Notes: generated by a model not told the origin, from the sequence alone. Numbered from the stretch's first letter, positions 8,182 through 60,027 are shown. The stretch is DNA of 64,000 nucleotides from an uncultured Clostridia bacterium (GCA_934463165.1 CAKSJG010000016.1:1-64000), one strand, 5' to 3'. Numbers and translations: made by a program.

Positions 8182-8195
8182 AAAATAATTACGAG

Positions 8196-25072: not shown

Positions 25073-25951
25073 TTAAAAGCTGATTTGTTCTCCGCGTGCA
25101 ACTCTGCGCGCTATTTCAGCTCTTTCCGAGGGAGTAAGCTTGGATACATCTTTTGTAAAAAGAGCCGTGCTTTTTCCGGATATACCGTTTTCGGCAGGTC
25201 TTGAATTTCTGGCTCTTATGGCATCCGTGGTCTGCTTTCTTGCGTCATCTGCCGCCTTATTTACCAAGCTGTCCACTATTTCATCGTGGTGAACGGTCAG
25301 ATAAGCGTCTCTCAGTGATATTCCCGCTTGCAAAAGTCTTAGGAATTCGGGGTTTCCCGCTTCCGTCTCCATGTCAAAATCGGGGTATTTTTCGCTTATC
25401 TGTGCCGATTCCTCCAGCCATGAACGCAGGGTGTTTTCCATTTTGATATCGCTTTGCTGCTGCATCATCTGTCTCTTTATGCTTTCGTTTTCAAATTCAA
25501 GCCTTTTGAGATGTTTAAGAGTATCCGTGTCAATCCCTCTTTTCTCGGCTTCTTCTTTTATGAAGCCGTCGTCGTTTGTTATTGCGTCTTTAAGTCCGCC
25601 GATGTCATCACCCGTTATGCCGTATTTCATTTTGAGCATCTCAATGATTTTTTCGTTTTGAATATTTTTTTCTTTGAGTGCGGAGCTCTCTTTAAACCTT
25701 CGTTTCAAATTATTCTGTATTCTCCGATCAAATTCTTCTTTGTACTTACCCTTGATAAGCTCTTCAAACTCGGCGTTTTTGTCGGTAATGACTTCCGCTG
25801 CCTTCATTTCTTCGGCAGCGCCGTTTTCTTCGTCGGCTGTCCGGTTTTGCGGTTGAGCGTCCGCCGCATCGGGGGATGCCTGTGCATTCGGTGCACCGTC
25901 CGGTGCGCCGGCATCTCCGTCAAATAAATTCAGCTCCATTTTGTATTTCAT
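25073..25951 (-). CDS. Phage scaffolding protein (DUF4355-like, coiled-coil).
   Basis: Start MKYKMELNLFDGD is the phage scaffold 'LNLQFF'-type N-terminus. Acidic low-complexity region. Long K/E coiled-coil. 18-nt gap to the capsid gene. Confidence 0.6.
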   Translation of the reverse strand: MKYKMELNLFDGDAGAPDGAPNAQASPDAADAQPQNRTADEENGAAEEMKAAEVITDKNAEFEELIKGKYKEEFDRRIQNNLKRRFKESSALKEKNIQNEKIIEMLKMKYGITGDDIGGLKDAITNDDGFIKEEAEKRGIDTDTLKHLKRLEFENESIKRQMMQQQSDIKMENTLRSWLEESAQISEKYPDFDMETEAGNPEFLRLLQAGISLRDAYLTVHHDEIVDSLVNKAADDARKQTTDAIRARNSRPAENGISGKSTALFTKDVSKLTPSERAEIARRVARGEQISF

Positions 25952-26073
25952 GTTTTCCTTCCTTTCGTCTTTCCGAAGTGTCCGGTTATCTCCGGTCTTT
26001 CCCGGGAGTCCGCAAGCCGATGTCATCCTTGGGCATTGTGTAGGTTTTTTGCTTCATCAAGCTTACGGATACT

Positions 26074-30879: not shown

Positions 30880-31746
30880 ATGGATCTTAATACACTGCTT
30901 GAATATTTAAGCCGCAGCTGCGATATGCTTTTGAATCTTCACGATGTGTCCGGAATACTGTCGGATCGTGTGTTCGGCGTTGATCAGAAATTCAAAATGC
31001 ATGCGCTCGGATTTTGCGACGCGGCAAAAACCACACCTATGGGCTATGACAGGTGCGTACGCTGCAAAAAGACGGTTTGCCGAATTGCAATAAGGCGAAA
31101 AAAGGGATTTTTCGGCATGTGTCCTTACGGAATAAACGAGCTTGTTTATCCTGTATCAACCGGCGGCAAAATAACGTGTATTCTCTTTATCGGCAATACA
31201 ACCGATAACATGGAAGAAACCTGCCGGCGCGCGAGAATAATGTGTCAAAAAACGGGTGTAGATTATGCCGAACTTTCAAAACACTTCTCCTCCGTCCGCA
31301 AAACCGACAAAAAGCTCATGACGGAGACGGCACAGATAGTGGCGGATCATATAAAATATAAATTTCTTACCGAAAAACGCAATATAGTTTTCAGCCGCGG
31401 AGACGGAATAGTATCTCAGCTTTGCCGCCACGCGGAGCTTAACTACAGCCGGAGTCTTACGCTTAAGGCGCTTTCGGATATGTATTTTATAAATGAAAAA
31501 TATGCCGGCAGGCTTTTTACTTCGCAGATGGGCTGCACATTTCATGAATATCTTACGGACAGGCGCCTTGAAGCCGCAGAAGCGCACCTTAAAAACAGTG
31601 ATCTTAACATAACCGAAATTGCAATAGCATGCGGATTTAATACGATATCATATTTTAACCGTGCATTTTATAAGAGAAATAATATGAGTCCGTCGGAGTA
31701 CAGAAAGGTTTTTAAAACGAAAAGCATGCCCCGAATTTATGGATAA
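30880..31746 (+). CDS. AraC/XylS-family transcriptional regulator.
   Basis: C-terminal double HTH with 'ITEIAIACGFNTISYFNRAFYKRNNMSPSEYRK'. Confidence 0.8.
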   Translation: MDLNTLLEYLSRSCDMLLNLHDVSGILSDRVFGVDQKFKMHALGFCDAAKTTPMGYDRCVRCKKTVCRIAIRRKKGFFGMCPYGINELVYPVSTGGKITCILFIGNTTDNMEETCRRARIMCQKTGVDYAELSKHFSSVRKTDKKLMTETAQIVADHIKYKFLTEKRNIVFSRGDGIVSQLCRHAELNYSRSLTLKALSDMYFINEKYAGRLFTSQMGCTFHEYLTDRRLEAAEAHLKNSDLNITEIAIACGFNTISYFNRAFYKRNNMSPSEYRKVFKTKSMPRIYG

Positions 31747-31911: not shown

Positions 31912-34074
31912 ATGAATTTTATCAGGAATATGAATATCAAGGTAAGATTTACAATTTCATATATAATAATTATTTTCACACTTATTTTCGGCAGCAGCAC
32001 ACTGCTTGTCAATATGTATAACAATATTTTGAAAGTTACAAATGAGCTTAACGAGCAAAATCATCGGTTTATAACAAACAACATAATAAATAAACTTGTT
32101 GAAAATCACAGCTTTATTCTGTCGTTTAACGATATAGAAAACATATCGCAGATCACGTCAACCGACAATTTGTATACCCTTTCGGAGCTCGGCGCGGCAA
32201 ATCAGCTCAGAAAGCTTTTTTTGAAGCCGCAGTTTTCAAAGAATAATGCAAGATTTTACGTATATATCAAGCAGACTGACTGCATTATTTCGGGTGCAGG
32301 TACCTTTAAGTCAAAACAGTTTTTTGATTATCTGAATCTGGATTACAACATAGACTACCGCGACTGGCTTGACGCAATGTGCAGTGTGGATAAAATTAAC
32401 GAATACCGCAATATCGGCAAGGACGGCAAATATATTATTTTCTCATCATATCTCAACAAAATGGTTAAGCTTCCGGGTGATGTGTATTTTTCGGGGCTTA
32501 TGAAGAGCAGCGACATGTTCGGCTATGATGAAAAAAACGATTGGTTTTTAAACAGCGCAAGCTATATATTTAACTTTAACGGCAATGTTGTTTTGAAATT
32601 TAACGAAAAATCCGACAAACTGCCCGAGATAAATACCATTGACAGGGCGCTTTCTATGTCTGATAAGTATTTTATTCTCAATTCGACGGTAACGTCAAAT
32701 GACACCGAGTGGCGCGTTGTTACGCTTGAGGACAAGGACCTTGCCTTAAAGAGCGTGAACAAAGTCCGCAATACAACGATAATTTTCTTTACCGCCGTGC
32801 TTGCTATATCCATACTTTTGGCAAAGTTTTTTGCAAGAACAAACTACAGACCGATTCAGCACCTGAGCAGTATGTTTACCGACGGCAATGCGAGGGATGA
32901 ATTTGAAAACATAAGACGCGGAATTGCAGCGCTGACGGATGAAAACACCGAGAACAAACTGAAAATCCGAATGATGAACGACGAAGTGAAAAACATGTTC
33001 ATCCTGAGAATTTTAAACGGCAATTTCAGCAGCGATTTTCTGAAAAGCGCCGCGGAATATTCCATAACCTTTCCGTTTGAGCATTTCTTTGTTATTCTGA
33101 TCTCTGATTATGAAGACGGCATTGCAGACAGACTGAAGCTTGACTCGGGAGGTGACGGCTGCAGGTTTTTTGCGGTTAAGCAGGGTGAGGACGCGGCAGT
33201 CATAGTAAACACCGATTTAGACTATGACGCTCTGAGCGCCATACTTCAAAAAGGTATTTGCTCAGGCGGAGGAAAGTATGTATATGTATCCGTCCGTCAT
33301 GACACCGTTGACGAAATACCGATCTGTTATGTTGAAGCAATGGAGTGCAAGGCGCAGTACGAGGGCTTTAAAAAGCAGCAGCACATTTATCAGTATGCGC
33401 CTGCAAGGTATCTCAGCGACATATACACCCTTTTAAACGAACAAATGATATGCAACTGTCTCAGAACAGGTAACTTTGCAAATATTAAAAAAATGCTCGA
33501 TAACATATTCGTAGAGCTTCGCAAGCTTCACGGAGTGGAAAGGAGTCTGCTTTTTACGGATCTTATCTGCATGGCTTCAAAGACGGTTTATGTTATTGAT
33601 TTGTCGGATCACCCCGACCTTGAAGCGCGTTTTTCGTTTTCGCATCTCAAACTCTTTGAAAACAGCATAGACACTCTTGAGACGGAGCTTAACGATCTGT
33701 ATATGCTGACGTGTAAGATTTCCGCAAAATATTTTGCGGAAAAGCAAAACGAGCTTCAGGTCAGACGTATCACGGCATGCATTTGGGAAAATTATTCCGA
33801 CCCCAATATGTCGCTTTCTTCCGTGAGTGAAGAACTCGGCATGTCGTCAAGACGGCTCACGACCATATTTAAAGATTCCAAAGGCATGACTATCCCCGAA
33901 TATATAAGCGATTTCAGAATAGAAAAGGCAATTGCCCTGTTCGGCGAAGACATGAGCATTTCCGATATTTCGGATTCCGTAGGCTTTGGAAACGTCAGAA
34001 CATTTGAGAGACTGTTTAAGGCAAAATACGGGATAACCCCCGCAAGATATCGCGCGCAGAATAAATTCAGATAA
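31912..34074 (+). CDS. Membrane-anchored one-component regulator: two TM helices bracketing an extracytoplasmic sensor domain, with a C-terminal AraC-type HTH.
   Basis: TM helices near residues 15-35 and 285-305. C-terminal 'ISDISDSVGFGNVRTFERLFKAKYGITPARYRAQ'. No kinase or receiver motifs. Confidence 0.7.
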   Translation: MNFIRNMNIKVRFTISYIIIIFTLIFGSSTLLVNMYNNILKVTNELNEQNHRFITNNIINKLVENHSFILSFNDIENISQITSTDNLYTLSELGAANQLRKLFLKPQFSKNNARFYVYIKQTDCIISGAGTFKSKQFFDYLNLDYNIDYRDWLDAMCSVDKINEYRNIGKDGKYIIFSSYLNKMVKLPGDVYFSGLMKSSDMFGYDEKNDWFLNSASYIFNFNGNVVLKFNEKSDKLPEINTIDRALSMSDKYFILNSTVTSNDTEWRVVTLEDKDLALKSVNKVRNTTIIFFTAVLAISILLAKFFARTNYRPIQHLSSMFTDGNARDEFENIRRGIAALTDENTENKLKIRMMNDEVKNMFILRILNGNFSSDFLKSAAEYSITFPFEHFFVILISDYEDGIADRLKLDSGGDGCRFFAVKQGEDAAVIVNTDLDYDALSAILQKGICSGGGKYVYVSVRHDTVDEIPICYVEAMECKAQYEGFKKQQHIYQYAPARYLSDIYTLLNEQMICNCLRTGNFANIKKMLDNIFVELRKLHGVERSLLFTDLICMASKTVYVIDLSDHPDLEARFSFSHLKLFENSIDTLETELNDLYMLTCKISAKYFAEKQNELQVRRITACIWENYSDPNMSLSSVSEELGMSSRRLTTIFKDSKGMTIPEYISDFRIEKAIALFGEDMSISDISDSVGFGNVRTFERLFKAKYGITPARYRAQNKFR

Positions 34075-34093
34075 CTTCCTTTTTTATAAACAT

Positions 34094-34148
34094 ACACTCA
34101 GGCAAAAAACACCGGCTCGAAAAAGCGCGGTGTTTTTTGCCTGAGTGT
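34094..34148. terminator. Bidirectional terminator: 21-bp perfect inverted repeat ACACTCAGGCAAAAAACACCG / CGGTGTTTTTTGCCTGAGTGT.
   Basis: Lies between convergent stops at 34074 and 34195. The inner CACCG/CGGTG stem is flanked by A6/T6 on both strands. Confidence 0.65.
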
Positions 34149-34194
34149 CTGAAACTTAATAAAAAATGCATAAACGCTTGAATATACCGAAAAA

Positions 34195-35865
34195 TTATAT
34201 ATTGTCATATGCGGTTTGTATTTTACTGTTTATTTCGCTTCTCAGGCTTAATATTTGATCGGCATGGATTTTGCAATTAAATGAGATGTCCGGTATGTGT
34301 TTTGATATTACGGAAAGCACAAAGTTTCTGCCGTAAAGCGATTCCAAAAGTTCGCATGCTCTTATATCCTGCATTTCATCCCTTATTGTCATAAGTCTTA
34401 CGGACGGTTCAACATTTTTTCCGTCGGGATATACCAGATATGATGTTCCGCTTACAAAATCTCCGTTCATATCACTTGATATTTTAGGGTTAACCATAGA
34501 GCGCGCCAGGCAGTTGTGATGAGCATTAAATCCCCAGTTCAAAAAGCCCTTTATTCCGAAATAATAAAGCTGAAATCCGAGTATTCTTCCGCGTTCCTGC
34601 GGCATACCGATCAGTCGGTTTGACATGTACTCATTACATTCGTATCCCGTGTAATAAAGCCATAAACGCTCGGTTTTCCCCAAAAAGTCTTTTATGCTCC
34701 GTGTGTTGACAATCGGATTATCTGTCAGACCGTTTTCAAAAAACGCATAATTGGAAAGAGAATCCCCGGTTAAATAACCCTTCAGTTCATTGCGCAAAAA
34801 TTTTGAGGCGAATTCATAGCTTTTCAAATTTTTTTCTTCCGGTTCATCCGAAATATGAAAAAAGAACCGTTTTTCATATCCGTTTGTTTTCATGAACTTT
34901 TTCAGTTCGGTAATATATGAATGAAGAAAGTAACGATATTCATCGCTCTGCGCATCGGTATGCCATCCGAACATCTTTTTTTCTTTTCCGTTTTCCGTCA
35001 CTATTATTTTCGGAGCGCATTTTGCTCCCCATTGCGTATAAAAATGACTGTGTTCAAAATATTCTGTTCCGCAGCTCAGAGCAGTATCAATAAATTTTTT
35101 CATCAATGAAAAATCAAAGCTGTATTTTCCGTTCTCTTTTCTGACAGAAACAAGCTGTACGGTTTTTCTTTCCTCGCCGACAGGAGTGTCAAGCGGAGGA
35201 GTAAATGCGGGAGTCAAAATCATGTTTTGACCGTTTTTGGCTGCCATGCGTATATATTTTTTTAAACAGGAAAAAAATGAATCCGAAAACGGTTTTGTTC
35301 TTGAAAAGTATGATATACAGTCGTAATGAACCCAGTTTGTCAGGACGGTATTTTGTTTGGGCAATGAGATATCGCAAACCTGTATTTTTATATTTTTTTC
35401 GGCAGCGGTCAGGTTGTTTTCCGTGTTGATAATTTTGATTCCGATTTGATATTCTCCGGGTTTTATATCCGTATTTTCATTTATGTTGATCCAAATACTT
35501 TTCCAATATCCCGCTGTAACCGAAAAACAATTTCCGCTTTTGCGGCAAAGACAATCGGGATATAACCCCGGATTTTTTCTCAGAAACCAGTCATCCGCAG
35601 TGCTGTAGCCTACTCTGAAAGCAGGTACGTTTTCAACAAAATAAATATCTATACTGTTATTTATTTCCGACATAATTTCAACTTTGAATTCCGAAGTATC
35701 ATTCCAGCCGTTGCCTTCTCCATCTTCAAATACTGCTCTGAATGCCGTCTGAAATGAAAATGCCTCGTTTTTAAATATTCGTGCACTTTGTATACTGTCG
35801 CTATATAATTTGCCGTCATAAAAAACGGTGTCGAGTGAATTTACAAGATATGATTCATATTTCAT
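34195..35865 (-). CDS. Putative glycoside-hydrolase-like protein (DUF4091/GH123-like guess).
   Basis: AAGGGGA RBS. Size (556 aa) and Trp/aromatic-rich composition fit a cytoplasmic carbohydrate-active protein. No catalytic motif was identified and the family assignment is not verified. Confidence 0.4.
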   Translation of the reverse strand: MKYESYLVNSLDTVFYDGKLYSDSIQSARIFKNEAFSFQTAFRAVFEDGEGNGWNDTSEFKVEIMSEINNSIDIYFVENVPAFRVGYSTADDWFLRKNPGLYPDCLCRKSGNCFSVTAGYWKSIWININENTDIKPGEYQIGIKIINTENNLTAAEKNIKIQVCDISLPKQNTVLTNWVHYDCISYFSRTKPFSDSFFSCLKKYIRMAAKNGQNMILTPAFTPPLDTPVGEERKTVQLVSVRKENGKYSFDFSLMKKFIDTALSCGTEYFEHSHFYTQWGAKCAPKIIVTENGKEKKMFGWHTDAQSDEYRYFLHSYITELKKFMKTNGYEKRFFFHISDEPEEKNLKSYEFASKFLRNELKGYLTGDSLSNYAFFENGLTDNPIVNTRSIKDFLGKTERLWLYYTGYECNEYMSNRLIGMPQERGRILGFQLYYFGIKGFLNWGFNAHHNCLARSMVNPKISSDMNGDFVSGTSYLVYPDGKNVEPSVRLMTIRDEMQDIRACELLESLYGRNFVLSVISKHIPDISFNCKIHADQILSLRSEINSKIQTAYDNI

Positions 35866-35888
35866 TTTGATTTCCCCTTCGTTTAAAT

Positions 35889-36695
35889 TTAAAGATTAAA
35901 TATTTTTTTTAGTTCGGTTAACGTATTTTTATCGGGCACATCAAAAGCCGGGGGCGTTATACTAAGCTCGGTATATTTGTGCTCGCCTGTTTTGTGATAC
36001 GGAAGCAGCTCAATTTTACTCGGCATATAATCTTTAAGGAAATCACGTATTTTTTTCGCCTCGGTTACACTGTCGTTTATCCCGGGAATAACGGGTATTC
36101 TTATCTGTATATTTGCTCCGCATTTAAAAAGTTTTTTTAAATTATTTATAATGAGACCGTTTTCCGATCCTGTATATTTTAGGTGTTTTTCAGGTTCAAT
36201 GAGTTTAATATCATACAAAAACAAATCCGTATAAGGTAAAATTCTTTCAAAGCTTTTCCACGGTACATTTCCGGCGGTATCAACAGCGGTATGAATATTT
36301 CCGCTTTTGCATTTTATCAGCAATTCTTCCAGAAAATCAATCTGCAGCATACATTCTCCGCCTGAAAAAGTTACTCCGCCCGATGAATTTTCATAATAAT
36401 CCCGGTCTTTTAATATTTCGCGAAATATTTCATCCGTATTGAAGGCTTTGCCGCATACGGATTTTGCGTTGTTTAAGCAGATAAAATTTTTGTCATATGC
36501 GCTTATATTTTTGCATCTTCCGCAGCCGGTGCACCTGCTTCTGTTGTATAATACCTGCGGTTCCGGTTTCTGACTTTCGGGATTATGACACCAAATACAT
36601 TTTAAATTGCAGCCTTTAAAAAACACAGTCGTTCTGATTCCCGGTCCGTCAGCAAACGACCCTCTTTGTATATCAAATATTATTGCCGTATTCAT
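35889..36695 (-). CDS. Glycyl-radical enzyme activating protein (radical SAM).
   Basis: CNLKCIWCHNPE, the Cx3Cx2C radical-SAM motif. Extra Cys cluster CTGCGRC...C. Its start overlaps the GRE stop as ATGA. Confidence 0.85.
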   Translation of the reverse strand: MNTAIIFDIQRGSFADGPGIRTTVFFKGCNLKCIWCHNPESQKPEPQVLYNRSRCTGCGRCKNISAYDKNFICLNNAKSVCGKAFNTDEIFREILKDRDYYENSSGGVTFSGGECMLQIDFLEELLIKCKSGNIHTAVDTAGNVPWKSFERILPYTDLFLYDIKLIEPEKHLKYTGSENGLIINNLKKLFKCGANIQIRIPVIPGINDSVTEAKKIRDFLKDYMPSKIELLPYHKTGEHKYTELSITPPAFDVPDKNTLTELKKIFNL

Positions 36696-38830
36696 CAGAG
36701 ATTCCTCCCTGTTTCATGGTTTGTTCTTTGAATTATCTCATCCTGTATTCCGTCGCTCAAATTTATAAAATAATCTGAAAAACCCGACACGCGAACTCGC
36801 AGCGATTTGTAGTTTTCGGGTGTTTTTTTTGCATTTAACAAATCATCGCCGGAAACATATGTCAGTTGAAAATGTGTTCCGCCCATTTTGAAATATGTTT
36901 CAAACATATACACCAGTTTTTCAAATGTATCGTCATCTTCAATCAAATGCTTTTCCAGCATAATATTTGTTACGCTCGGCCCTGTAAGAATATTATACGG
37001 ATCACACTTTGCCACGGAATTTAAAAGCGCTGTAAGGCCTTTTCTGTCCTTGCCGAGAGACTGTCCTATGCCGAAGTTTATCAGATCGCCGTCAAACCTG
37101 CCGTCCGGTGTGGCTTTTGTTTTATCTCCGAAAAATTTGTTGTGAGCGTTATATCCGATGAGATTGCCGAACAGAAGCTTTTTGTTAAGATAATTGCAGC
37201 CGTTGTTCCATTTGTCAAGACTTTTGAAGAATCTGTGAGCAATAAAATTTGAACACGGGTCATCATTGCCGAAAAACATTCCCTTTTCGAGTATTAATTT
37301 TCTCAGGCTTTCATATCCGTTCCAATTGTTTTTAAGCGCGTCAATTAAATCTGCCATGGTTGTTATTTTTTCGTCATACACAAACTGCTTTGTGACCGAC
37401 AATGAATCAATTACATTCGATATTCCGATCAACAGACCCACAGCTATATATTTTTTTATTCCGCCCTGTGTTATGCTCTTTGCATTTTCAATGCATCCTT
37501 CAACAAGAATGTTACTCAATACGTTGCAGTCGCGGCTTCTTATTTTCTGAAATCCGCTTCCTATGCCGTCAGCCTCGTTTAGATCTTTGTACATTTCTTC
37601 CTCAAATATTTCGTAAAATTCTTCAAATGTTTTTGCCCGTATTATACTTTTGCTTCTTTCAAAAAATGTGTTCTGAACGCACCTTACAATGTTCATCGGG
37701 TCAAAGCCGAATACAATTCCTCCGGGCATGGCAATTTCATTGCAGCCTATCATGGTGTAGTTTACGGCCTCGTTATGCGTCAGCCCCGTATATTTCATAA
37801 GTCCGTTAATTCTCGGTTCATCATTTACAAAGGCAATACGTTTATTGGGGTCACGGCGTTCGCGGTCTGCCATATAGCGTAAAACTTCGTGCGGAGTTTT
37901 TTCGGTCCATCGCAATGTTATTTGAGGAATCCACACGGGAAGCTCCGTCAGAGAATCGACAATGAGTTTTGAAAGCTCATTGAAACCGTCATTCCCGTTT
38001 TCAAGATAACCTCCGACGCAGAAGTGAGATTCTCCTCCGCGACAAAAATTATTTGATGTTTTCGGCGTTCTTGCCTGCAGCATTAAAAACAGCTCCTGCA
38101 GGTATTGTGCTGCCGTATCTTCCGAAAGTATTCCGCTTTCCGTATCATTTTTATAAAACGGATATAAATATCTGTCGATCAGACCGATGCTGTCCGGAAG
38201 AATACTGAAGCAAATATATAAAGACAAAACCGCTTCGTAGAAGCTTTCGGCGCGTTTTTCCGGCACGGTTTTTAATGACATCGCCAATTTTTTCAGGCGC
38301 TGCTCCGTATCTTTATCGGAAGCCTTTTCAGAGAGTTTAAGCGCTTTTTCCGAACATTTGTTTGCCCAAAAAATTATTGTGTCGCAAACATCGTTTTGAG
38401 TTTCCAAAAATTCAATTGCCGCCTTATCTTCCGAATGTTTTTTCATTGATTTTTGTATTGCGCTTTTTATCCCTTTTATTCCGTTGTTTATTATTTTTCC
38501 GAAATCTCCGGCCGAGTGCTGCCACTCAAATGTAAGCAGATTATCAACGGGCTTGTTATAGAAATTTTCCAAAGCCGTCCCGAAATTTTTGTGACCGATT
38601 CTGCTGAAAACATCGCCCTCAACGCTTCCGTCAAAGTTTATGACACCCGTAAAACATGATTCATCGGTGATCAGAGGCTCCTGATTTTTTATGTATTCGC
38701 ACAGCCGTTTACAAGACATCTTTAACGGAGATAAAAACAGATCACATTTATCATAATTTGTTTTAATCGGCTTAACATACATTTCGCCCGATAATGTCTT
38801 TTGGGTTAATTTTTTTATTCTTTCATTCAT
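36695..38830 (-). CDS. Glycyl radical enzyme of the PFL-like superfamily, eliminase/dehydratase type; substrate unknown.
   Basis: GGAGGA RBS 8 nt before ATG 38830. C-terminal glycyl-radical motif RVRVSGFSDYF. Thiyl Cys loop MIGCNEIAMPG (Cys-x-Glu). Only 711 aa. Confidence 0.8.
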   Translation of the reverse strand: MNERIKKLTQKTLSGEMYVKPIKTNYDKCDLFLSPLKMSCKRLCEYIKNQEPLITDESCFTGVINFDGSVEGDVFSRIGHKNFGTALENFYNKPVDNLLTFEWQHSAGDFGKIINNGIKGIKSAIQKSMKKHSEDKAAIEFLETQNDVCDTIIFWANKCSEKALKLSEKASDKDTEQRLKKLAMSLKTVPEKRAESFYEAVLSLYICFSILPDSIGLIDRYLYPFYKNDTESGILSEDTAAQYLQELFLMLQARTPKTSNNFCRGGESHFCVGGYLENGNDGFNELSKLIVDSLTELPVWIPQITLRWTEKTPHEVLRYMADRERRDPNKRIAFVNDEPRINGLMKYTGLTHNEAVNYTMIGCNEIAMPGGIVFGFDPMNIVRCVQNTFFERSKSIIRAKTFEEFYEIFEEEMYKDLNEADGIGSGFQKIRSRDCNVLSNILVEGCIENAKSITQGGIKKYIAVGLLIGISNVIDSLSVTKQFVYDEKITTMADLIDALKNNWNGYESLRKLILEKGMFFGNDDPCSNFIAHRFFKSLDKWNNGCNYLNKKLLFGNLIGYNAHNKFFGDKTKATPDGRFDGDLINFGIGQSLGKDRKGLTALLNSVAKCDPYNILTGPSVTNIMLEKHLIEDDDTFEKLVYMFETYFKMGGTHFQLTYVSGDDLLNAKKTPENYKSLRVRVSGFSDYFINLSDGIQDEIIQRTNHETGRNL

Positions 38831-38978
38831 AAAAGATTCCTCCGATCTGAAATTGTACGGCATATATACCATGAGCTAATTATACACCTGTTCAAAACAA
38901 TGTAAATGATTATAACAGACATATTTGTCTGAAACGGACAAAACATCTTGAAAAAATAATTATATAATGTTATAATGA

Positions 38979-39170
38979 AATAAAAATGCTTTGTTTGTAA
39001 GCGGATACGTCGGTTACATAGCAAAAATTCTTCTTATAAACACGGCCGGCAAAATTTCTGATATTGCTGTTCGGTGCGGATTTTCGGATGTGTATTCTTT
39101 CAGCCACTGTTTTAAGAGAATATACGGAATTTCGCCGGGAGAATACAGAGAAAGCAACAGTTATGTTTAA
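38979..39170 (+). pseudogene. AraC-family regulator remnant: C-terminal HTH fragment only, about 63 codons with no start codon.
   Basis: Translates to ...LLINTAGKISDIAVRCGFSDVYSFSHCFKRIYGISPGEYRESNSYV*. An in-frame stop lies immediately upstream. Confidence 0.55.
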
Positions 39171-39339
39171 TGCGGCATAATTCTTTCCGAATGTTTCGGC
39201 GGCGAAATGTAAATCAACAAATATATAATGTATAAAAGTCATGCATCGTTATGCGGTGTGTGACTTTTGTACTTATACGAAAATCATAACGCGTGAATAT
39301 CTGTCCGGCGGGCATGAGCCGGTATGCTTGCAATGCCGA

Positions 39340-39414
39340 TTGACAAGCGTTTCCGATTTTGTACAATAAATGCAGAATTTGTCTCTTGAGGGAGTCTGCC
39401 GCGTCTGATATAAT
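39340..39414 (+). promoter_or_regulatory. Tandem sigma-A-like promoters for the sugar ABC transporter operon.
   Basis: P1: TTGACA (39340-39345), 16-nt spacer, TGTACAAT. P2: TTGAGG (39386-39391), 17-nt spacer, TATAAT (39409-39414). RBS AGGAGGA at 39434. Confidence 0.4.
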
Positions 39415-39439
39415 ATTTATATAAAATCACAACAGGAGG

Positions 39440-40345
39440 ATGGTTCGATTGAACAACAGAGAATTTTCAAAAATTCCGGTATCGAGAAAAATATTTTTGA
39501 CATTCGATTACGTTTTTTTAAGTGTGCTTGCGCTCATAATGCTTTATCCCATATGGTATGTTATATGCGCGGCATTCAGCTCCAACAATGCATTCATGGC
39601 AAATGACAAGATACTCATTTTCCCGCTTGAATTTACGACGGACGCTTTTAAGATGATGTTTAAAAATCCGATGATTGCCCGCGGCTTTTTAAACGGAGTT
39701 TTTCTTGTGGCGGTAACAACCTTCGGAGCAGTCATTATGACGGCGATGTGCGCATATGTGCTTTCAAGAAAAGGCGTTTTGTGGAATAAGGCATTCAGTA
39801 AGTTTGTTATATTTACGATGTATTTTAACGGCGGCCTTATCCCTACATACCTTGTTATAGTAAATTTTCTTCATCTTAATGACAGCTGGCTTGCACTCAT
39901 ACTCCCGGCTCTTATGTCGGTATATAATATGATAATAATGAGAACGTCGTTCTCCGCAATACCGCAGTCTCTTGAAGAAGCCGCAAGAATAGACGGTGCA
40001 AGTCATTGGGTGATACTTTTCAAAATAGTCCTCCCGCTTTCAAAGGCTATCATAGCCGTTATGTGCCTGTATTACGCGGTCGGCAATTGGAACTCATGGT
40101 TTCCGGCTTCGATATATCTTAAAACAAGAAGCAAATATCCGATACAGCTCATTCTGCGTGAAATTCTTATTGCAAACGACACATCATCCATGACGGGCGA
40201 TGTCGCAATGGCAGATCAGGTAAACGTGGGCGAGATTATAAAATATGCGGTAATAGTAACCGTAACGCTTCCGATACTTGCGGTATATCCGTTCCTGCAA
40301 AAGTATTTTGTCGGCGGTGTTATGATAGGCGCGGTTAAAGGCTGA
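39440..40345 (+). CDS. Carbohydrate ABC transporter permease (CUT1, LplC/MalG-like).
   Basis: EAA loop 'EEAARIDGASHWVILFKIVLP'. Six TM helices. TTG 39449 is the possible true start. Confidence 0.8.
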   Translation: MVRLNNREFSKIPVSRKIFLTFDYVFLSVLALIMLYPIWYVICAAFSSNNAFMANDKILIFPLEFTTDAFKMMFKNPMIARGFLNGVFLVAVTTFGAVIMTAMCAYVLSRKGVLWNKAFSKFVIFTMYFNGGLIPTYLVIVNFLHLNDSWLALILPALMSVYNMIIMRTSFSAIPQSLEEAARIDGASHWVILFKIVLPLSKAIIAVMCLYYAVGNWNSWFPASIYLKTRSKYPIQLILREILIANDTSSMTGDVAMADQVNVGEIIKYAVIVTVTLPILAVYPFLQKYFVGGVMIGAVKG

Positions 40346-40368
40346 TGGGAGGCAGGTGATAATACATA

Positions 40369-41295
40369 ATGACAAATAAAGAAAAATTAAGCGTATCAAG
40401 AATCAAAGGCGATTTCAAGATGAACCGTTCAATATACGGTATGATGCTTGTGGTTGCCGTGTGGCTTTTCATTTTTTCGTATCTGCCGATGTACGGTATC
40501 ATAATTTCGTTTATGGATTACCGCCCGGCACTCGGAATTATGGGCAGCAAATGGGTCGGTCTCAAACACTTTGAGACATTTCTGACTTCACCGTCGTTTT
40601 TCAGAATACTCAAAAACACGGTGAAAATAAATCTTTATGCCCTTGTATTTAATTTTCCGGCTCCGATAATACTTGCAATCCTTTTAAATGAGCTTAAAAG
40701 CCGCAAGTTTGTCCGAGTTGTGCAAAACTTTACATATCTGCCGCATTTTATATCCCTCGTTGTCGTATGCGCAATGATAAAGGAATTCACTATGGACAGA
40801 GGCGTTATAGGGCTTGTGACAAAGTTTTTCGGAGGAGAGGCAAAAACACTTTTAAACTATAAAGAGTATTTCATCCCCGTGTATGTAATTTCGGGTATAT
40901 GGGAGCAGGTCGGCTGGGGAAGCGTAATTTACTTTGCGGCTCTCACGGGTATTGACGCTCAGCTCTATGAAGCGGCCGAGATAGACGGCGCCGGATATTG
41001 GAAAAAGCTCGTCCACGTAACTCTGCCGGGAATAAAATCCACAATAATAATAATGCTTATCTTAAGACTCGGTTCAATCCTTAACGTATCGTTTGAAAAA
41101 ATACTTCTTTTATATAACGACGCAACGATGGAGGTCGCGGATGTTATATCAACATACGTTTACAGGCGCGGCCTTGTAAAGATGGATATGAGTTATTCAA
41201 GCGCCATAGGACTTTTCAGCTCGGTTATTAACATTTTGTTCCTGACGGGTGCAAACTTTATAAACAAAAAAGCAAATGAAGAATCACTTTGGTAA
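40369..41295 (+). CDS. Carbohydrate ABC transporter permease (LplB/MalF-like).
   Basis: Basic N-terminal cytoplasmic extension. EAA-like 'YEAAEIDGAGYWKKLVHVTLP'. Confidence 0.8.
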   Translation: MTNKEKLSVSRIKGDFKMNRSIYGMMLVVAVWLFIFSYLPMYGIIISFMDYRPALGIMGSKWVGLKHFETFLTSPSFFRILKNTVKINLYALVFNFPAPIILAILLNELKSRKFVRVVQNFTYLPHFISLVVVCAMIKEFTMDRGVIGLVTKFFGGEAKTLLNYKEYFIPVYVISGIWEQVGWGSVIYFAALTGIDAQLYEAAEIDGAGYWKKLVHVTLPGIKSTIIIMLILRLGSILNVSFEKILLLYNDATMEVADVISTYVYRRGLVKMDMSYSSAIGLFSSVINILFLTGANFINKKANEESLW

Positions 41296-41338
41296 AATAA
41301 ATAATATAAAAGGTATATAAAAAGGAGAGATTTTAAAA

Positions 41339-42874
41339 ATGAAAATGAAAAAATTGCTTTGTATTGCGGCGGCTCTTTCGATAGGTCTTTCGGGCTGCGG
41401 CACAAAAACGGAGGAAACATCAAGCCTTGATTTCAAAAGCTACCCGGTAAATGACGATACCGTCCTTACATACTGGATGCCGCTGAACACAAATATATCG
41501 AGTCTTTACGATAACTTCGGCGATACGCTTTTTGCAAAAGAGCTTGAAAAAGAAACAGGAATAAAGGTAAAATACATTCACCCTGCGGCAGGTCAGGAAA
41601 ACGAAGCCCTTTCGCTTCTTATAGCGTCCGGCGAGCTTCCCGATATTATCGAGTATCCGTGGTACGGATACAGCGGCGGCGGTCACAGGGCGGTTAAAGA
41701 CGGGGTTATAGAGTCGATAGACGGCGTTATAAAGGAAAATTCTCCGAACTATATGAAATACCTTGATGAACATAAGGATGTTGTCAAAGAAATTTCATCC
41801 GATGACGGCAGCATTTTCGGCTATGAGCTCATAAGAGGCAGTCTTTCTCTCGGAATAAACGGAACCGCAATTGTCAGAAGCGACTGGATGAAGGAGCTCG
41901 GCTTGGAACAGCCCAAAACAACCGATGATATAGAAAATATCCTCACGCAGTTTAAAGAAAAAAAGGGATGTAGTGCTCCGCTTACAGGCGGACTTGGATC
42001 AGCCGTTGTATTGGTGGGTGGAAATCTTGAAATGAGAATGTATGACGGAAAGGTTGATTACGGTCCGCTCAGAGATAATTTCAAAACCGCTCTCCAGACT
42101 CTTAACAGATGGTATAAAAAAGGTCTTTTGGATAATAATTTTATTTCATCCGACAGCAAGACCGTCGATTCAAACATGTTAAACGGTTATTCCGGTGTTG
42201 CATACGGCGGCATCGGCGGTCTCCTCGGAAAATGGCTTGATGCTAAAATCGGTGATGCCGATTACGGCTGGCTCAACATCCCCGGCGATGAATACGCACC
42301 GAACGTTAACCTGACGCTTTCAAACGCCGCCGCAATTACGACATCGTGCAAAAACAAAGCGCTTGCCGCACGTCTGCTTGATTACGGCTACAGCGAAAAG
42401 GGCAGCATGCTCTATAACTTCGGCACAGAGGGCAAAAGCTATACCATGAAAGACGGCGAGCCGATTTATACCGATGAAATCCTTAAAAACCCCGACGGCC
42501 TCACGGTTTCGCAGAGCATGGCAATAAACTTCCGCGCAAGCACAACGGGTCCGTTTGTTCAGCAGGAGGGTTACTTAAAACAGTTTTACGGCAAACCTCA
42601 GCAGCAGGAAGCATGGAAAAACGAATCCGCAAAGGCGGAGGAATACAGAAAGAGATTTGTTCCGAATATAACATACACCGATGAAGAAAATGATGAACAG
42701 GCCGATATCATGACAGAGGTTTCAGCGTATGTTAAAGAATATGCAACAAAGTTTATAACAGGCAGCGAAAGCTTTGATAACTGGGATAAATTTATTGCAG
42801 GTATGAAAGAGTATAAAATAGACAGAGCGATTGAAATTAATCAGGCAGCTGTTGACAGATACAACAAGAAATAA
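41339..42874 (+). CDS. Extracellular solute-binding lipoprotein (LplA-like, about 500 aa; oligo-/polysaccharide-binding).
   Basis: AAAGGAGAG RBS. Lipobox LSGCGT. Size and position typical of LplA-type SBPs. No ATPase gene in the operon. Confidence 0.8.
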   Translation: MKMKKLLCIAAALSIGLSGCGTKTEETSSLDFKSYPVNDDTVLTYWMPLNTNISSLYDNFGDTLFAKELEKETGIKVKYIHPAAGQENEALSLLIASGELPDIIEYPWYGYSGGGHRAVKDGVIESIDGVIKENSPNYMKYLDEHKDVVKEISSDDGSIFGYELIRGSLSLGINGTAIVRSDWMKELGLEQPKTTDDIENILTQFKEKKGCSAPLTGGLGSAVVLVGGNLEMRMYDGKVDYGPLRDNFKTALQTLNRWYKKGLLDNNFISSDSKTVDSNMLNGYSGVAYGGIGGLLGKWLDAKIGDADYGWLNIPGDEYAPNVNLTLSNAAAITTSCKNKALAARLLDYGYSEKGSMLYNFGTEGKSYTMKDGEPIYTDEILKNPDGLTVSQSMAINFRASTTGPFVQQEGYLKQFYGKPQQQEAWKNESAKAEEYRKRFVPNITYTDEENDEQADIMTEVSAYVKEYATKFITGSESFDNWDKFIAGMKEYKIDRAIEINQAAVDRYNKK

Positions 42875-42937: not shown

Positions 42938-45900
42938 ATGAGAAGAATTTCAGCTAAAGTATTTTCGATTTTTATGTCGGCATTATTGGCATTTAACATT
43001 GCGCCGTCGGTCAGCTTTGCCGAATCGGGCTCTTCACTTCCGTTTAAGCCCGATTTTTCTTCCGAAATCGGAAAAGCGCCCTCGGAAATGGATTATATAG
43101 TTGAAGACGGAAGCATAACCGTTGAAAGCTACTACGGCAGAAATGTCATTTACGTGAAAAACAATTCCGACGGCAAGCCTGCACAGCTTTCAAAGCAGTT
43201 TGACCCCGTCTCCGATACGGGCATAGCCGTTCAATTTTCATATATGCAGCGCTATGCAAAGCAGGATGACGCAACCGTTTTTGCACTCACAAGCGGAAGC
43301 AAAGAAATAATAAATCTTAAAACAAAAAACGGTGACATAGTAAGCGTCGGTAAAGACGGCACAACCGGTGTTATCGTAGAAAAATATTCCGCAAATAAGT
43401 GGTATGATTTTTCTTTTGACATAGACCTTAAGGAAAAAACGTTCGCAGTCAGCGTAAATTCGGGCAAAACATTTAAAAATCTTTCGTTTTATACCGATTC
43501 CGCATCTGCCGACGGAATAAAATTCATGACTCGGTATTCACCCGGATTTGCAATTGCCGATATTGCTGTTGCAACCGATGAAAAATCAGACGTTATGGAA
43601 ATATCCGGCTCCGATACCATGAACGTGCGCAAAAGCAGCGATTCGGTATATGAATATGAAGCGGTTTTGTATGATAACTTCGGCAATAAGGTGAAAAATG
43701 CCGAATATTCATGGTCTACGTATCCCCAAACGATAAACGGTATCGGCAAAAGCACCGACGGCGGTAAAATTACTTTCACTGTCGGCAGCACATCAGATTA
43801 CCGCGGTGTTGTGACTTTGTCGGTCACGGCAAACGGAATTACGGCCGTGAAATATATAACCGTCGTTAATCAGCAGATTGCCGAAATGAGTTTTGAGGGG
43901 GCATATAAAATTGCTTACGGAGTGGAAGACGGCAACAGCTTTGCGCTGGATATTAATATGTACAGCAAAGACAGCGAGCTGCTCGATGATGAAGACGTTG
44001 AATGGAAAATCACATGCAATACGGACGGAGTTACGTTTACAAAAGAACCGTCAAGGCTTATTATCACCGTTTCAAAAGAGCTTCCGAATATGGATGTGAT
44101 AAATATAAAGGCTGTGCTTAAAAGCAACAAGAGCATAATAGCCGAGAGAAATATATATACATATCCGAGCAATCTGTATAACATCGATAAGTCAAGATTT
44201 GATACCATGCTTGAGTCGGTTGATTATCTGACAAACACACTTGCGAAGAATCCGTGTAATGACGCACCGCTTTTTTCATCGTATATCAACCTGAAAGCAG
44301 GAAGACCGTATCTTGTTCCGTCATGGTTTGACGGTTATAAATATGTTACGAATCTTGCCAACGATTCCGTAATGTATAAGGTTTTTGACGCGCTTACAGC
44401 CGTTACCGGAGATGAAAAATACACTGAAATGACCGATGCCACATATAATTGGTATCTTAAAAACGAAATAGACGAAAAAAGTCACCTCGGCTTCTGGGGC
44501 GGACACTGTATGGTGTATCTTGACACTTTGAAAGAGCAAAAAGCGCGCCGCGGTCCGAATGATCCGAATGCCACATATCAATATCATGAGCTTAAGGACC
44601 ACGCATTCTATTGGAATCCGTTTTTCAGACTTAATCAAAAAAAAGCAACCGAAATGGTGCGCGGAGTATGGAACGCGCATGTTATGGACTGGAGTAACCT
44701 GATGTTTAACAGACACGGCGTTTACGGGCAGACTCATTCCGATAACGGCAACTGGGCGAAAGCGTATGAATTTAATCCTCCCACGGAATTTGTCAGACTG
44801 ACCGAAGGCGTTGGCTTCAGGTCGAGTGCAAACGATTTTGCGAGCGCCGCAGCGGAATTATATGCAGAAACGGGCGATGAAAATGCAAAAAGATGGGCAT
44901 ACAATATTCTTGCGTCGTTTTACTCTTTGAGAAACCCCGAAACCCACATAGCCGTAACGCAGTTTACAACGGCTCATAGGGCTAAGGGCGCTCAGGATCC
45001 CGATGTTATCTACCCCGGATGGTGGAAAGAAGAAAGAAATGACGGCCCTGCAACACTTACAACCATGGGAGACAGATTTTTTAATCAGTTTGCGGATGAT
45101 TTGGTAGCTCAGGGCTTTTATACCGAAGAGGATAAAAAGACCGATAAAATGACAGAGGGAAACATGGCAAGTTTTCAGGCAAATTCGATTTTAAAGGATT
45201 TTTATGTTGCGGAAAGGCTCGGCGATGATACCGAAGAGGGAAAAATGCTGAAAAAATATGCAACACAGCATACAGCGGGATATCTCAGATATTTCTGGAT
45301 TGAAAACACAAACACATTTAAGTATGGTATGATAGACGGTACAGATCTTTATGACTTTTATCCGAACCGTAACGGATATTACGGAACCGGATATTACGGA
45401 GCTCACCGCCGTTATTCCAACGGTCACCTTAAAAATACGGATGTTAACAGATTTTATCTGGCATGCAAATGCTACAGATACGCCGTTACCGATCCCGAGC
45501 TTGCGGATGATGCAAAAATCCTGAAAAAATTTATTGATTATTATGCAAACAGCGTATACCGTATAGGAAGCATCGGCAATGAAACAATAGGCGATGATGG
45601 CACAAAGCTTGAAAAATCGGCAACATACAGTCATCCGCTGCTTATACTTTGCCTGATTGATCTTTACAAGGCAAGCGGAAATAAGGAATTTCTTTCCCTT
45701 GCAAGAAACATTGCGACAAATTTCTATAATGAATACTATATAAACGGCGTATATTTTTCTCCGAGTCTGTATATAGCAAATAAACCCACGGTAGAGCCCG
45801 GAGGAAACTATATTTATCTGTTCGGCGGGACAAACGCCCTCGGTTATCATGCGCTTATTGCGCTTGAAGCTACCCTTTGCGGAATTGAAGATAAAATACC

Positions 45901-46270
45901 GCAGTATGAAATTTTTGAAGGATATTATGAGGAATATTTCCGTGATGAATACGATAATGCTACAACCATGACCGACAGAGACTGGATCAGTTCACGTTAT
46001 TTACCCGATGTTAATATTGAAAAGGTATACTGTGAAGACGAAATTCACTTAAAGGTCGGCGAAGAACGCACGCTTGAATTCGGCTATTATCCCGAAGATT
46101 ATACGGAAGATGAGAATATTGCATGTGTCAATAAATATAAAAACACCGTTCACTATAACGAAAAGAACTCATCCGTTATCGGAAAATCCAAAGGCGAGGC
46201 GGAGCTGATATTTTATGCCGGCTCAAACAGGGTCGAACACAGAGTCAGGGTTATTGTTGAGGAGGAATAG
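42938..46270 (+). CDS. Large secreted protein: Ig-like (Big_2-type) domains flanking a central alpha-helical catalytic-like domain (putative polysaccharide lyase or hydrolase).
   Basis: AAGGAGG RBS. Signal peptide. C-terminal Big_2-like 'VYCEDEIHLKVGEERTLEF...'. Roughly 600-aa W/Y-rich central region. Confidence 0.55.
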   Translation: MRRISAKVFSIFMSALLAFNIAPSVSFAESGSSLPFKPDFSSEIGKAPSEMDYIVEDGSITVESYYGRNVIYVKNNSDGKPAQLSKQFDPVSDTGIAVQFSYMQRYAKQDDATVFALTSGSKEIINLKTKNGDIVSVGKDGTTGVIVEKYSANKWYDFSFDIDLKEKTFAVSVNSGKTFKNLSFYTDSASADGIKFMTRYSPGFAIADIAVATDEKSDVMEISGSDTMNVRKSSDSVYEYEAVLYDNFGNKVKNAEYSWSTYPQTINGIGKSTDGGKITFTVGSTSDYRGVVTLSVTANGITAVKYITVVNQQIAEMSFEGAYKIAYGVEDGNSFALDINMYSKDSELLDDEDVEWKITCNTDGVTFTKEPSRLIITVSKELPNMDVINIKAVLKSNKSIIAERNIYTYPSNLYNIDKSRFDTMLESVDYLTNTLAKNPCNDAPLFSSYINLKAGRPYLVPSWFDGYKYVTNLANDSVMYKVFDALTAVTGDEKYTEMTDATYNWYLKNEIDEKSHLGFWGGHCMVYLDTLKEQKARRGPNDPNATYQYHELKDHAFYWNPFFRLNQKKATEMVRGVWNAHVMDWSNLMFNRHGVYGQTHSDNGNWAKAYEFNPPTEFVRLTEGVGFRSSANDFASAAAELYAETGDENAKRWAYNILASFYSLRNPETHIAVTQFTTAHRAKGAQDPDVIYPGWWKEERNDGPATLTTMGDRFFNQFADDLVAQGFYTEEDKKTDKMTEGNMASFQANSILKDFYVAERLGDDTEEGKMLKKYATQHTAGYLRYFWIENTNTFKYGMIDGTDLYDFYPNRNGYYGTGYYGAHRRYSNGHLKNTDVNRFYLACKCYRYAVTDPELADDAKILKKFIDYYANSVYRIGSIGNETIGDDGTKLEKSATYSHPLLILCLIDLYKASGNKEFLSLARNIATNFYNEYYINGVYFSPSLYIANKPTVEPGGNYIYLFGGTNALGYHALIALEATLCGIEDKIPQYEIFEGYYEEYFRDEYDNATTMTDRDWISSRYLPDVNIEKVYCEDEIHLKVGEERTLEFGYYPEDYTEDENIACVNKYKNTVHYNEKNSSVIGKSKGEAELIFYAGSNRVEHRVRVIVEEE

Positions 46271-46273
46271 ATT

Positions 46274-48898: not shown

Positions 48899-48910
48899 GA
48901 GGGCGGAAAA

Positions 48911-54097: not shown

Positions 54098-54166
54098 TAT
54101 GACGCGCGCGTCTTAAAAACCGACGCGCCCCGTTTATATTAAAATATAAATCACGGAGGTAATTTT

Positions 54167-56860: not shown

Positions 56861-56889
56861 TTAAATATTCTGACATTATAGTTTAAAGC

Positions 56890-56938: not shown

Positions 56939-56967
56939 TTATAGTTGATACAAGGGAGGTAATTAAA

Positions 56968-58014: not shown

Positions 58015-58032
58015 AAAACCGAGGGTGAAACA

Positions 58033-60003: not shown

Positions 60004-60027
60004 AAAGTTTGGAAAGGAATTTTTTTA

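Follow-up and report, generated by a model that had tools for sequence, protein, structure and literature searches.

We found that a 64-kb stretch of DNA (64,000 nucleotides, hereafter the window) from an uncultured Clostridia bacterium carries on its minus strand, from position 38830 down to 34195, three tightly packed genes encoding, in this order, a glycyl radical enzyme (GRE), its activase and a GH123-like glycosidase. It appears fairly probable that the GRE is an uncharacterised 1,2-eliminase (probably a dehydratase) from a module that consists of an AraC regulator, a short-chain dehydrogenase/reductase (SDR), the GRE and the activase, and that in the window this module has been truncated and fused to a β-N-acetylgalactosaminidase (β-GalNAcase) gene at the edge of a polysaccharide locus.

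A clade of short GCNE-type GREs

The GRE gene (36695-38830, minus strand) encodes 711 residues with both domains of the GRE superfamily, PFL-like (PF02901, 3e-78) and Gly_radical (PF01228, 3e-20; residues 602-703 of the open reading frame, ORF). The RVSGF motif starts at residue 680, which makes Gly683 (codon at 36782-36784, minus strand) the predicted glycyl-radical site. The loop GCNE occupies residues 362-365 in the 711-residue numbering, and its Cys363-Asn364-Glu365 codons (37736-37744, minus strand) provide the predicted thiyl-radical Cys and general-base Glu of a Cys-X-Glu (CXE) loop. The ORF as a whole spans 36695-38872 on the minus strand. Its ATG at 38830 is supported as the start codon, and is the one preferred here, because it is preceded at 9 nt by a GGAGG ribosome-binding site, a promoter-like site is found further upstream, and the database cluster representative P0001 likewise has 711 residues. 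A previous reading made from the sequence alone (the sequence-only reading) had described a 711-residue GRE with RVSG[FY] and GCNE motifs, of the eliminase type rather than a pyruvate formate-lyase (PFL), next to an activase and a co-oriented glycoside-hydrolase-like gene. All of these features were recovered: the CXE loop aligns with the catalytic pairs of glycerol dehydratase (GD) and HypD, the activase, with 304 bits against 174, clears the cut-off of the glycyl-radical-activase family TIGR02494 of NCBIfam, and the third gene belongs to a real glycosidase family. The same reading had put the GRE at about 100 residues shorter than characterised GREs. It is indeed shorter, but by a varying 48-135 residues when compared with the characterised PFL-like GREs (PFL 759, PflD 765, GD 787 and CutC ~846 residues). 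The shortening is mostly N-terminal, with residue 105 of the window GRE aligning with GD residue 164. GREs of ~700-760 residues are common among sequence-database representatives, so the short length by itself is not unusual.

The ten-stranded GRE barrel fold is backed by an AlphaFold2 model (pLDDT 89.9, pTM 0.90) and by its Foldseek matches to solved GREs. Template-modelling (TM) scores of 0.77-0.83 at 19-24% identity were obtained with 1,2-propanediol dehydratase (PD), GD, IseG, HplG, HypD, CutC, HpyG, PflD and YbiW; the best matches are PD (5i2g) and GD (1r8w), and no clear favourite stands out. For the eliminases among them the range is 0.78-0.83 at 20-24% identity, and the identity to IslA also falls within 19-24%. 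Sequence scores against solved GREs likewise form a plateau, with HpyG at 203 bits, HypD at 200, IslA at 198, HpsG at 197, GD at 196, CutC at 187-191, PD at 186, PflD at 177.9 (8ID0) and YbiW at 159.6 (8ID7). The last two, at 19-21% identity, fall under the eliminases, which does not indicate a close sequence relationship with YbiW/PflD. The scores for the NCBIfam equivalogs are three- to four-fold or more below each cut-off: 282 bits against 1000 for the sulfonate C-S lyase/2,3-dihydroxypropane-1-sulfonate (DHPS) dehydratase group (NF048011), 262.9 against 1100 for trans-4-hydroxy-L-proline dehydratase HypD (NF043068), and 237.3 against 1050 for choline trimethylamine-lyase CutC (TIGR04394), to which the identity is 20-21%. 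For the broad PFL2-3 subfamily (TIGR01774), the score of 265.5 bits against a cut-off of 678.2 leaves the window GRE outside the GD/PD group.

A neighbour-joining tree without bootstrap was built from 120 representatives of 50%-identity clusters, members from related loci and five references recovered from PDB alignments (GD, HypD, HpyG, IslA and HpsG). It placed the window GRE in a clade of 20 sequences, all 678-732 residues long and all with GCNE, with no characterised reference among them. The placement among GRE clades that the sequence-only reading had proposed as a check has thus been carried out, and the tree, the bit scores and NCBIfam agree that the GRE clusters with no characterised clade. 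By these sequence comparisons, it is assigned to a separate, monophyletic and uncharacterised clade of ~700-residue "GCNE" GREs. The clade can be recognised by the signature WQH...DSxGxxD...ESHF...GCNE...GY...RV(S/T)GF, represented in the window GRE by W103-Q-H105, D213-S214, E267-S-H-F270, G362-C363-N-E365, D377, G559-Y560 and R-V-S-G683-F. Literature searches for a GRE with DUF4091, a GRE with SDR and AraC, and GREs newly characterised since 2024 found no report on this clade. A 2026 review states that whole GRE clades are still without an assigned function.

Active site, predicted chemistry and activase

Residues were mapped through pairwise HMMER alignments at 24-29% identity. G362-C363-N364-E365 aligns with Cys433/Glu435 of GD and Cys434/Glu436 of HypD, a single catalytic Cys as against the Cys-Cys pair of PFL, and on this alignment the window enzyme is classed as a Cys-X-Glu GRE of the eliminase/isomerase type. 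His105 is matched with GD His164, for which a role as general acid towards the departing hydroxyl has been proposed (PMC13450708), while D377 and D213 align with GD Asp447 and HypD Asp278, respectively. In the pairwise HMMER alignment with GD, Tyr339 is matched by Glu267, Tyr640 by Gly559 with Tyr560 one position off, and the His281/Ser282 loop by a gap. A clade-specific E267-S-H-F270 motif stands where the segment of GD Tyr339, HypD Phe340 or IslA Trp374 lies. We also considered a sulfonate lyase, for which the NCBIfam score of HpsG was the highest and an 'HW/HF' motif is held in common. This candidate was rejected, as the sulfonate-binding Arg residues have no counterpart: IslA Arg678 is within an insertion that the window GRE lacks, and the position of Arg189 is a Leu by extrapolation past the aligned region.

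The relatives were divided by identity to the window GRE into group A (62% or more) and group B (49-62%). W103, Q104, H105, S106, D213, S214, H269, F270, C271, G362-E365, D377, G559, Y560 and H563 do not vary among 43 sequences of group A, in which E267 and S268 come close to invariance. Gly683 in RVSGF is invariant in the clade, as is G362-C363-N364-E365 in both groups. The signature is nearly invariant in 39 group B sequences as well, with differences at a few positions (106, 217, 366, 369 and 377), as would be expected of paralogues with another specificity. The window GRE is therefore most likely, as far as conserved residues can tell, a 1,2-eliminase and probably a dehydratase that acts on a small polar hydroxylated substrate. 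The conserved polar residues (Q104, H105, S106, D213, S214, E267, S268, H269, N364, D377, Y560 and H563) suggest that this substrate may be a small polar polyhydroxylated compound or an amino-alcohol.

By analogy with GRE family chemistry, the activase would reductively cleave S-adenosylmethionine and take a hydrogen atom from Gly683, and the glycyl radical would give rise to a thiyl radical on Cys363. This thiyl radical would take a hydrogen atom from a carbinol carbon of the substrate, whose hydroxyl would be deprotonated by Glu365. A vicinal leaving group, most probably a second hydroxyl protonated by His105, would then depart, and the α-carbonyl radical would regain a hydrogen atom from Cys363 to yield an aldehyde or ketone. 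In the orthologous modules, the SDR might reduce the product of the GRE or make its alcohol substrate.

The activase gene (35889-36695, minus strand; 268 residues; TIGR02494) encodes a GRE-activating radical-SAM enzyme with the motif C29-x3-C33-x2-C36 (CX3CX2C), which is conserved in 54 of the 55 family activases. Eliminase activases usually have eight Cys residues in their ferredoxin-like insert. The insert of the window activase is shortened and has only five conserved Cys residues (C55-x2-C58-x2-C61, C73 and C81), suggesting one auxiliary [4Fe-4S] cluster in the activases of this clade, not two. Every cysteine conserved across the 55 family activases is retained in the window. The activases of the clade (55 in related loci L001-L084) are short in general, most of them having 262-298 residues.

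The AraC-SDR-GRE-activase module in related loci

A scan of one genome per species with a 7-sequence alignment found GRE relatives in at least 346 species-level genomes. The best 80 of these 346 all come from uncultured Clostridia that live in the gut of humans, ruminants or birds. Many of the human-derived loci come from Hadza and Nepali cohorts, and non-industrialised human cohorts and livestock together account for many of the loci. We examined 84 loci, with up to 10 kb of flank per locus, and clustered their ORFs. The conserved neighbours are a divergent AraC gene of ~260-290 codons (74 loci), the activase gene (50) and a gene for a classical SDR of ~246 residues (49). Group A was compared in 39 other non-redundant loci, from 38 species-representative genomes and one metagenome contig. 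The orthologues there are 62-76% identical to the window GRE, with every putative active-site position that was checked being the same, and 33 of the loci have AraC within three genes of the GRE, while 29 have the SDR and 25 have the activase there. The conserved unit of the clade is a self-contained one, made up of a divergent AraC, the SDR, the GRE and the activase.

No other gene recurs in this way. A census of 128 other neighbouring proteins gave 178 Pfam families, none seen more than four times, and no two of ten group A loci share the gene just past the activase, those found there including genes for a glucuronate isomerase, an Fe-hydrogenase, a MatE transporter, a GH4 enzyme, an SH3 protein and a tRNA synthetase. 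The sequence-only reading had deduced a carbohydrate-derived substrate from the surrounding genes and had named frequent occurrence outside carbohydrate loci as evidence to the contrary. The comparison does not support this deduction: in tblastn searches with the window proteins, the 84 loci, with their flanks of up to 10 kb, contain no GH123-like, GH88, PL2-like or GH36-like gene and no counterpart of the window ABC importer's solute-binding protein or first permease, and the module lies in a different setting in each of the 39 group A loci.

The partners themselves say little about the substrate. For the SDR, NCBIfam and PDB searches gave no more than generic FabG-like or classical SDR matches below the cut-off, which give no substrate clue, and the cognate AraC resembles known regulators in its helix-turn-helix region only, with a ligand domain that is uninformative. 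The partners of the group B GREs are an M20 dipeptidase of the Sapep/PepV type, a phosphotriesterase-family protein, a β-lactamase-fold hydrolase or a PGA_cap protein, a hint that the substrates of these GREs could be conjugated or peptide-derived. These hydrolase partners occur instead of the SDR or besides it (L056, L057, L060-L064, L069, L076 and L081).

Some further features of the related loci were noted. Tandem arrays of two to three GRE genes are present in L060 (2763-12124), L078 (1654-12121), L057, L026, L028, L063 and L071. As a rule, each GRE in them is accompanied by an AraC of its own, and often by a separate activase too. Enzymes of group A or B stand there next to unrelated GREs (23-28% identity) with GC[YVW]E loops, which gives the impression that radical-enzyme cassettes specific for different substrates have radiated in gut Clostridia. 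In L036, an 892-residue GRE (5713-8391) that is close in sequence to the glycerol dehydratase of Clostridium butyricum (Kimura distance 0.51 in the tree) is encoded a few kb from a group A enzyme, which suggests that the two differ in substrate. Between the GRE and the activase of three group A loci lies a gene for a ~340-residue protein with no Pfam match (L030 12144-13172, L031 5786-6799 and L046 12130-13167).

An AraC relic and the probable fusion of two modules

In the window, a 59-codon ORF (38991-39170, plus strand) between the GRE start and an ABC permease gene is divergent from the GRE, like the AraC of the conserved module. With the AraC proteins of the related loci, tblastn found 86 matches at 38991-39167 (78 in the 39000-39499 bin and 8 from 38991). 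They have 59-73% identity and cover only residues ~208-267 of ~270, so that no more than the final 50-60 codons, with the second helix-turn-helix, survive. The bit scores are 72-77 against GRE-cognate AraCs, but 30-33 against GH123-cognate AraCs and 35-39 against the two AraCs of the window itself, and an origin from either of the latter sources was rejected on this account. The gap from the relic to the GRE is only ~160 bp; the N-terminal ~200 codons, about three-quarters of the gene, and the promoter region are gone, as is any SDR gene that stood in between. The SDR proteins of the related loci have no match anywhere in the 64-kb window, and the AraC that normally precedes the GH123-like gene has also been lost. 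Taken together, the relic, the missing SDR and the lost GH123-type AraC indicate that the window operon is a fusion of two formerly independent AraC-controlled modules, and thus that its arrangement is secondary. One module would have supplied the GRE and activase, minus about three-quarters of its AraC and without the SDR. The other would have supplied the exo-β-N-acetylgalactosaminidase, which elsewhere has its own AraC and lies beside a NagA-like deacetylase or other glycoside hydrolases. The same arrangement exists in three more contigs of the same species from different samples. The placement of the GRE beside the polysaccharide locus is probably a lineage-specific juxtaposition and no evidence of a sugar substrate. 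The GRE itself is typical of its group, keeping 221 of the 223 residues that are invariant in the other group A members, and by this measure it is not decaying but still constrained.

The signals around the genes are those of a single transcription unit. A sigma-70-like promoter candidate (38879-38906, minus strand) with TTTACA-16-TATAAT matches the consensus at 11 of 12 positions; it was found by a consensus scan, and such a pattern match is in itself no evidence of function. The start codon of the activase overlaps the GRE stop codon by 4 nt (ATGA), and the glycosidase gene begins 23 nt past the activase with a ribosome-binding site of its own. Between the convergent GH123-like and AraC genes lies a perfect inverted repeat of 19 bp, flanked by T-runs on each side (34096-34146; ViennaRNA fold of -42.4 kcal/mol), which probably ends the operon as a bidirectional terminator. 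No riboswitch or other RNA element was matched in an Rfam scan of 33500-39800 (E<=0.1).

The GH123-like glycosidase

The third gene (34195-35865, minus strand) encodes a DUF4091/GH123-like protein of 556 residues with a GH123_cat domain (PF13320, 3e-80). It matches the monosaccharide-releasing β-N-acetylgalactosaminidase of PDB 8K2L over its full length (E=5e-100) and 8K2N at 8e-66, and the founding GH123 enzyme CpNga123 (5L7R) only at 4e-6. The consecutive catalytic Asp-Glu (DE) motif of the DUF4091/GH123-like enzymes, as defined in PMC11087588, is intact, D340-E341 in FFHISDEP aligning with FFHVSDEP of 8K2L. The predicted activity fits the exo-β-N-acetylgalactosaminidases of Group 4 of the DUF4091 enzymes described by Sumida et al. 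2024 (PMC11087588). The N-terminus has no signal-peptide-like sequence, so the enzyme is predicted to be cytoplasmic and should act on imported oligosaccharides. It is plausible that it would remove β-linked N-acetylgalactosamine (GalNAc) exposed once the GH88 enzyme trims lyase products, a role that would tie it to the polysaccharide locus and not to the GRE.

The sequence-only reading had suggested profiling the co-occurrence of the GRE with this adjacent gene. None of six GH123-like homologues with 59-65% identity has a GRE beside it. In four of these six loci, an AraC gene is followed by the GH123-like gene, with a divergent NagA-like deacetylase gene and a gene for a 282-residue protein, while the other two have the order GH28, GH123, GH3, GH65. 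The 282-residue protein has no Pfam match and is always paired with the NagA-like amidohydrolase, divergent from the AraC-GH123-like pair (L089, L090, L092 and L096). It is a candidate for a missing step of GalNAc catabolism.

The surroundings of the operon

The surroundings listed by the sequence-only reading (two AraCs, an importer, GH88, GH36, ROK and SLH proteins) are all present in the window. On one side lie genes for a PocR-AraC regulator (30880-31746) and for a 720-residue AraC with two predicted transmembrane segments (31912-34074). On the other side lie those for two ABC permeases and a 511-residue solute-binding protein (39440-42874), followed by a Gram-positive polysaccharide locus on the plus strand (42938-61746). 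The locus encodes a 1110-residue PL2-like lyase, an 874-residue SLH protein and a 1728-residue SLH protein that combines eight aBig_2 domains with three SLH repeats, as well as a GH88-family enzyme (56920-58014), a GH36-clan enzyme (58033-60003) and two large proteins with no Pfam match (54167-56860, 897 residues; 60028-61746, 572 residues). A ROK kinase gene is found at 61941-62852. Given the GH88 enzyme and the β-GalNAcase, a GalNAc-uronic acid polymer would fit as the target glycan.

About 4 kb from the operon, there is a gene for an FAD-dependent oxidoreductase of family PF12831 (29159-30424, minus strand). In three other loci, its relatives (27-36% identity, tblastn) adjoin the GRE module or lie close to it, a weak recurrence, at L070 7781-9013, L026 6463-8262 and 20861-21928, and L038 20038-21204; one of the L026 copies only shares the Pfam domain. 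A phage-capsid-like gene (23795-25054, minus strand; PF25209 and PF13252) and an adjoining 317-codon ORF with no Pfam match (25073-26026) lie between the GRE region and a cell-division/cell-wall cluster (~8.8-20.8 kb; penicillin-binding protein, Mur ligases, FtsW and FtsZ). These two genes could be what is left of a prophage, or else an encapsulin-like element.

Alternative explanations

An alternative is that the GRE acts on a carbohydrate product of the locus, such as GalNAc, a deoxy- or anhydro-sugar or the 4-deoxy-hexulose-uronate made by the GH88 enzyme, and that the operon is a functional unit of the polysaccharide locus. We regard this as unlikely, and yet several observations speak for it or weigh against the preferred reading. 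The 4-nt overlap and the 23-nt gap, with one promoter-like site and one terminator across the three genes, and their shared low GC content at third codon positions (GC3; 0.35-0.42 in the GRE, activase and GH123-like genes, and in the AraC relic too, against 0.43-0.51 in both flanks) make co-transcription likely. The common low GC3 further implies that the three genes may have arrived or evolved together, and there may be a new functional coupling of GRE and glycosidase in this lineage. In addition, the SDR is missing from 10 of the 39 group A loci too, so its absence in the window need not come from the AraC deletion; the flanks of the related loci reach only up to 10 kb and many contigs end short; and the pocket membership of the listed residues was deduced from pairwise alignments at 24-29% identity. 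A sugar substrate would also agree with the very polar putative pocket, with the position of the operon adjoining and divergent from the ABC importer, PL2-like lyase, GH88, GH36-like and ROK kinase genes, with YbiW and PflD as precedents for sugar-acting GREs, and with a few neighbours in group A, namely a glucuronate isomerase next to the module in two loci (in L009, which was checked, just past the activase), two aldolases of the 2-keto-3-deoxy-6-phosphogluconate (KDPG) type and a GH4 enzyme in one locus. What decides against it for us is the comparison with the relatives, whose 84 loci, with flanks of up to 10 kb, hold no GH123-like, GH88, PL2-like or GH36-like gene and neither the solute-binding protein nor the first permease of the importer, and whose orthologues, with the same active-site positions wherever checked, occur with an SDR in unrelated settings. 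Moreover, none of the GH123-like homologues is accompanied by a GRE, the AraC relic identifies the fusion as secondary, and the GRE is no nearer to YbiW/PflD (160/178 bits) than to other eliminases (~200 bits). The low GC3 of the segment from the GH123-like gene to the relic is, as a separate matter, compatible with acquisition from a lower-GC donor. A bolder version of a sugar-related role, that the ~700-residue GCNE clade performs a radical C-O or C-N cleavage new to GREs on a non-phosphorylated polar metabolite, for instance a hexosamine, alditol or amino-alcohol, and was recruited in this single species behind a promoter that it shares with the β-GalNAcase, to process the released GalNAc or its aglycone, seems distinctly improbable. 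If true, it would be the first GRE acting directly on a free (amino)sugar in the glycan foraging of gut Clostridia.

The GRE could also be a divergent B12-independent glycerol or 1,2-propanediol dehydratase with a shortened scaffold, whose aldehyde product would be reduced by the SDR. PD (5i2g) and GD (1r8w) are its top Foldseek matches, the equivalents of GD His164, Asp447 and possibly Tyr640 are kept as H105, D377 and Y560, a PocR-type AraC is encoded nearby, and a compact module without a transporter suits a freely diffusing substrate. However, the identity is only 24%, the scores are no different from those of HypD, CutC, IslA and HplG, and with 265 bits the GRE stays well below the PFL2-3 subfamily cut-off of 678. 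In the pairwise HMMER alignment, Glu267 of ESHF takes the place of Tyr339 and the His281/Ser282 loop falls in a gap; microcompartment shell genes are absent from the neighbourhoods, where iron-containing alcohol dehydrogenase (Fe-ADH) genes make up 2 of the 128 neighbours; and the tree puts GD outside the clade, with a GD-like paralogue standing beside a group A enzyme in L036, from which different roles of the two would follow. We consider this identity very doubtful. The idea that the GRE-activase pair is a stranded, decaying remnant and that only the β-GalNAcase matters in the operon is the least probable of all, despite an AraC cut to 59 codons and the lack of an SDR in the window. Both ORFs are intact behind a strong promoter-like site and a ribosome-binding site, 221 of the 223 group A-invariant GRE residues and all family-conserved activase cysteines are kept, and the identical arrangement is found in contigs from several independent samples. 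We therefore retain the fusion of a truncated AraC-SDR-GRE-activase module with a β-GalNAcase gene as the preferred explanation.

Comparison with known systems

GREs of the gut take part in trimethylamine, p-cresol, skatole and sulfide production and in hydroxyproline use, and are relevant to the host. The present clade is compact and self-contained (regulator, SDR, GRE and activase), with a distinct active-site signature and a shortened activase. Identifying its substrate would extend anaerobic gut metabolism by a new reaction or, failing that, by a new specificity. The apparent sugar-active radical enzyme inside a polysaccharide locus is probably an accident of gene order. The carbohydrate surroundings of the window would misdirect a substrate screen, for which the SDR-linked orthologues and the AraC sensor are better guides. 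The window GRE is a worthwhile target for enzyme discovery, but its link to sugar is weak.

The only precedent for the kind of substrate proposed by the sequence-only reading is given by YbiW and PflD, the 'anhydroglycolysis' isomerases. They act on 1,5-anhydroglucitol-6-phosphate and 1,5-anhydromannitol-6-phosphate (PMC13450708), which makes the statement that no characterised GRE handles anhydro-sugars outdated. They are CXE-type enzymes like the window GRE, but score only 160 and 178 bits at 19-21% identity to it, and their sugars are phosphorylated. YbiW and PflD are coupled to downstream aldolases (PMC13450708), whereas the clade described here has no aldolase as a conserved neighbour (KDPG-type aldolases are 2 of the 128 neighbours). 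The glycosidase, for its part, resembles the NgaP2/NgaLy-type Group 4 enzymes (8K2L and 8K2N) in its full-length match, DE motif and GH123_cat domain. Unlike its homologues, it lies behind a GRE and an activase, here alone, and not behind its own AraC.

HypD (6VXC) and HpyG (8ID1) give the best PDB sequence scores (200 and 203 bits), share the CXE loop and, in the case of HypD, have Asp278 in the place of D213. They differ in that the identity is 22-23% (Foldseek) and that Ser334 and Phe340 of the HypD pocket have no counterpart in the window GRE. The window GRE is 24% identical to GD (1R8W) and PD (5I2G) and is ~76 residues shorter than GD, ~59 of the missing residues being at its N-terminus, and ~135 residues shorter than PD. 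It has GCNE instead of GCVE in the loop, ESHF in place of the segment with Tyr339 (GD) or Phe344 (PD), a gene context without a microcompartment or Fe-ADH, and a place in a separate clade of the tree. On the other hand, it shares with both enzymes the barrel fold (TM 0.82-0.83), the Cys-X-Glu loop and the RVxG glycine loop, an adjacent radical-SAM activase and, as predicted, the same chemistry, a 1,2-elimination of a hydroxyl that leaves a carbonyl.

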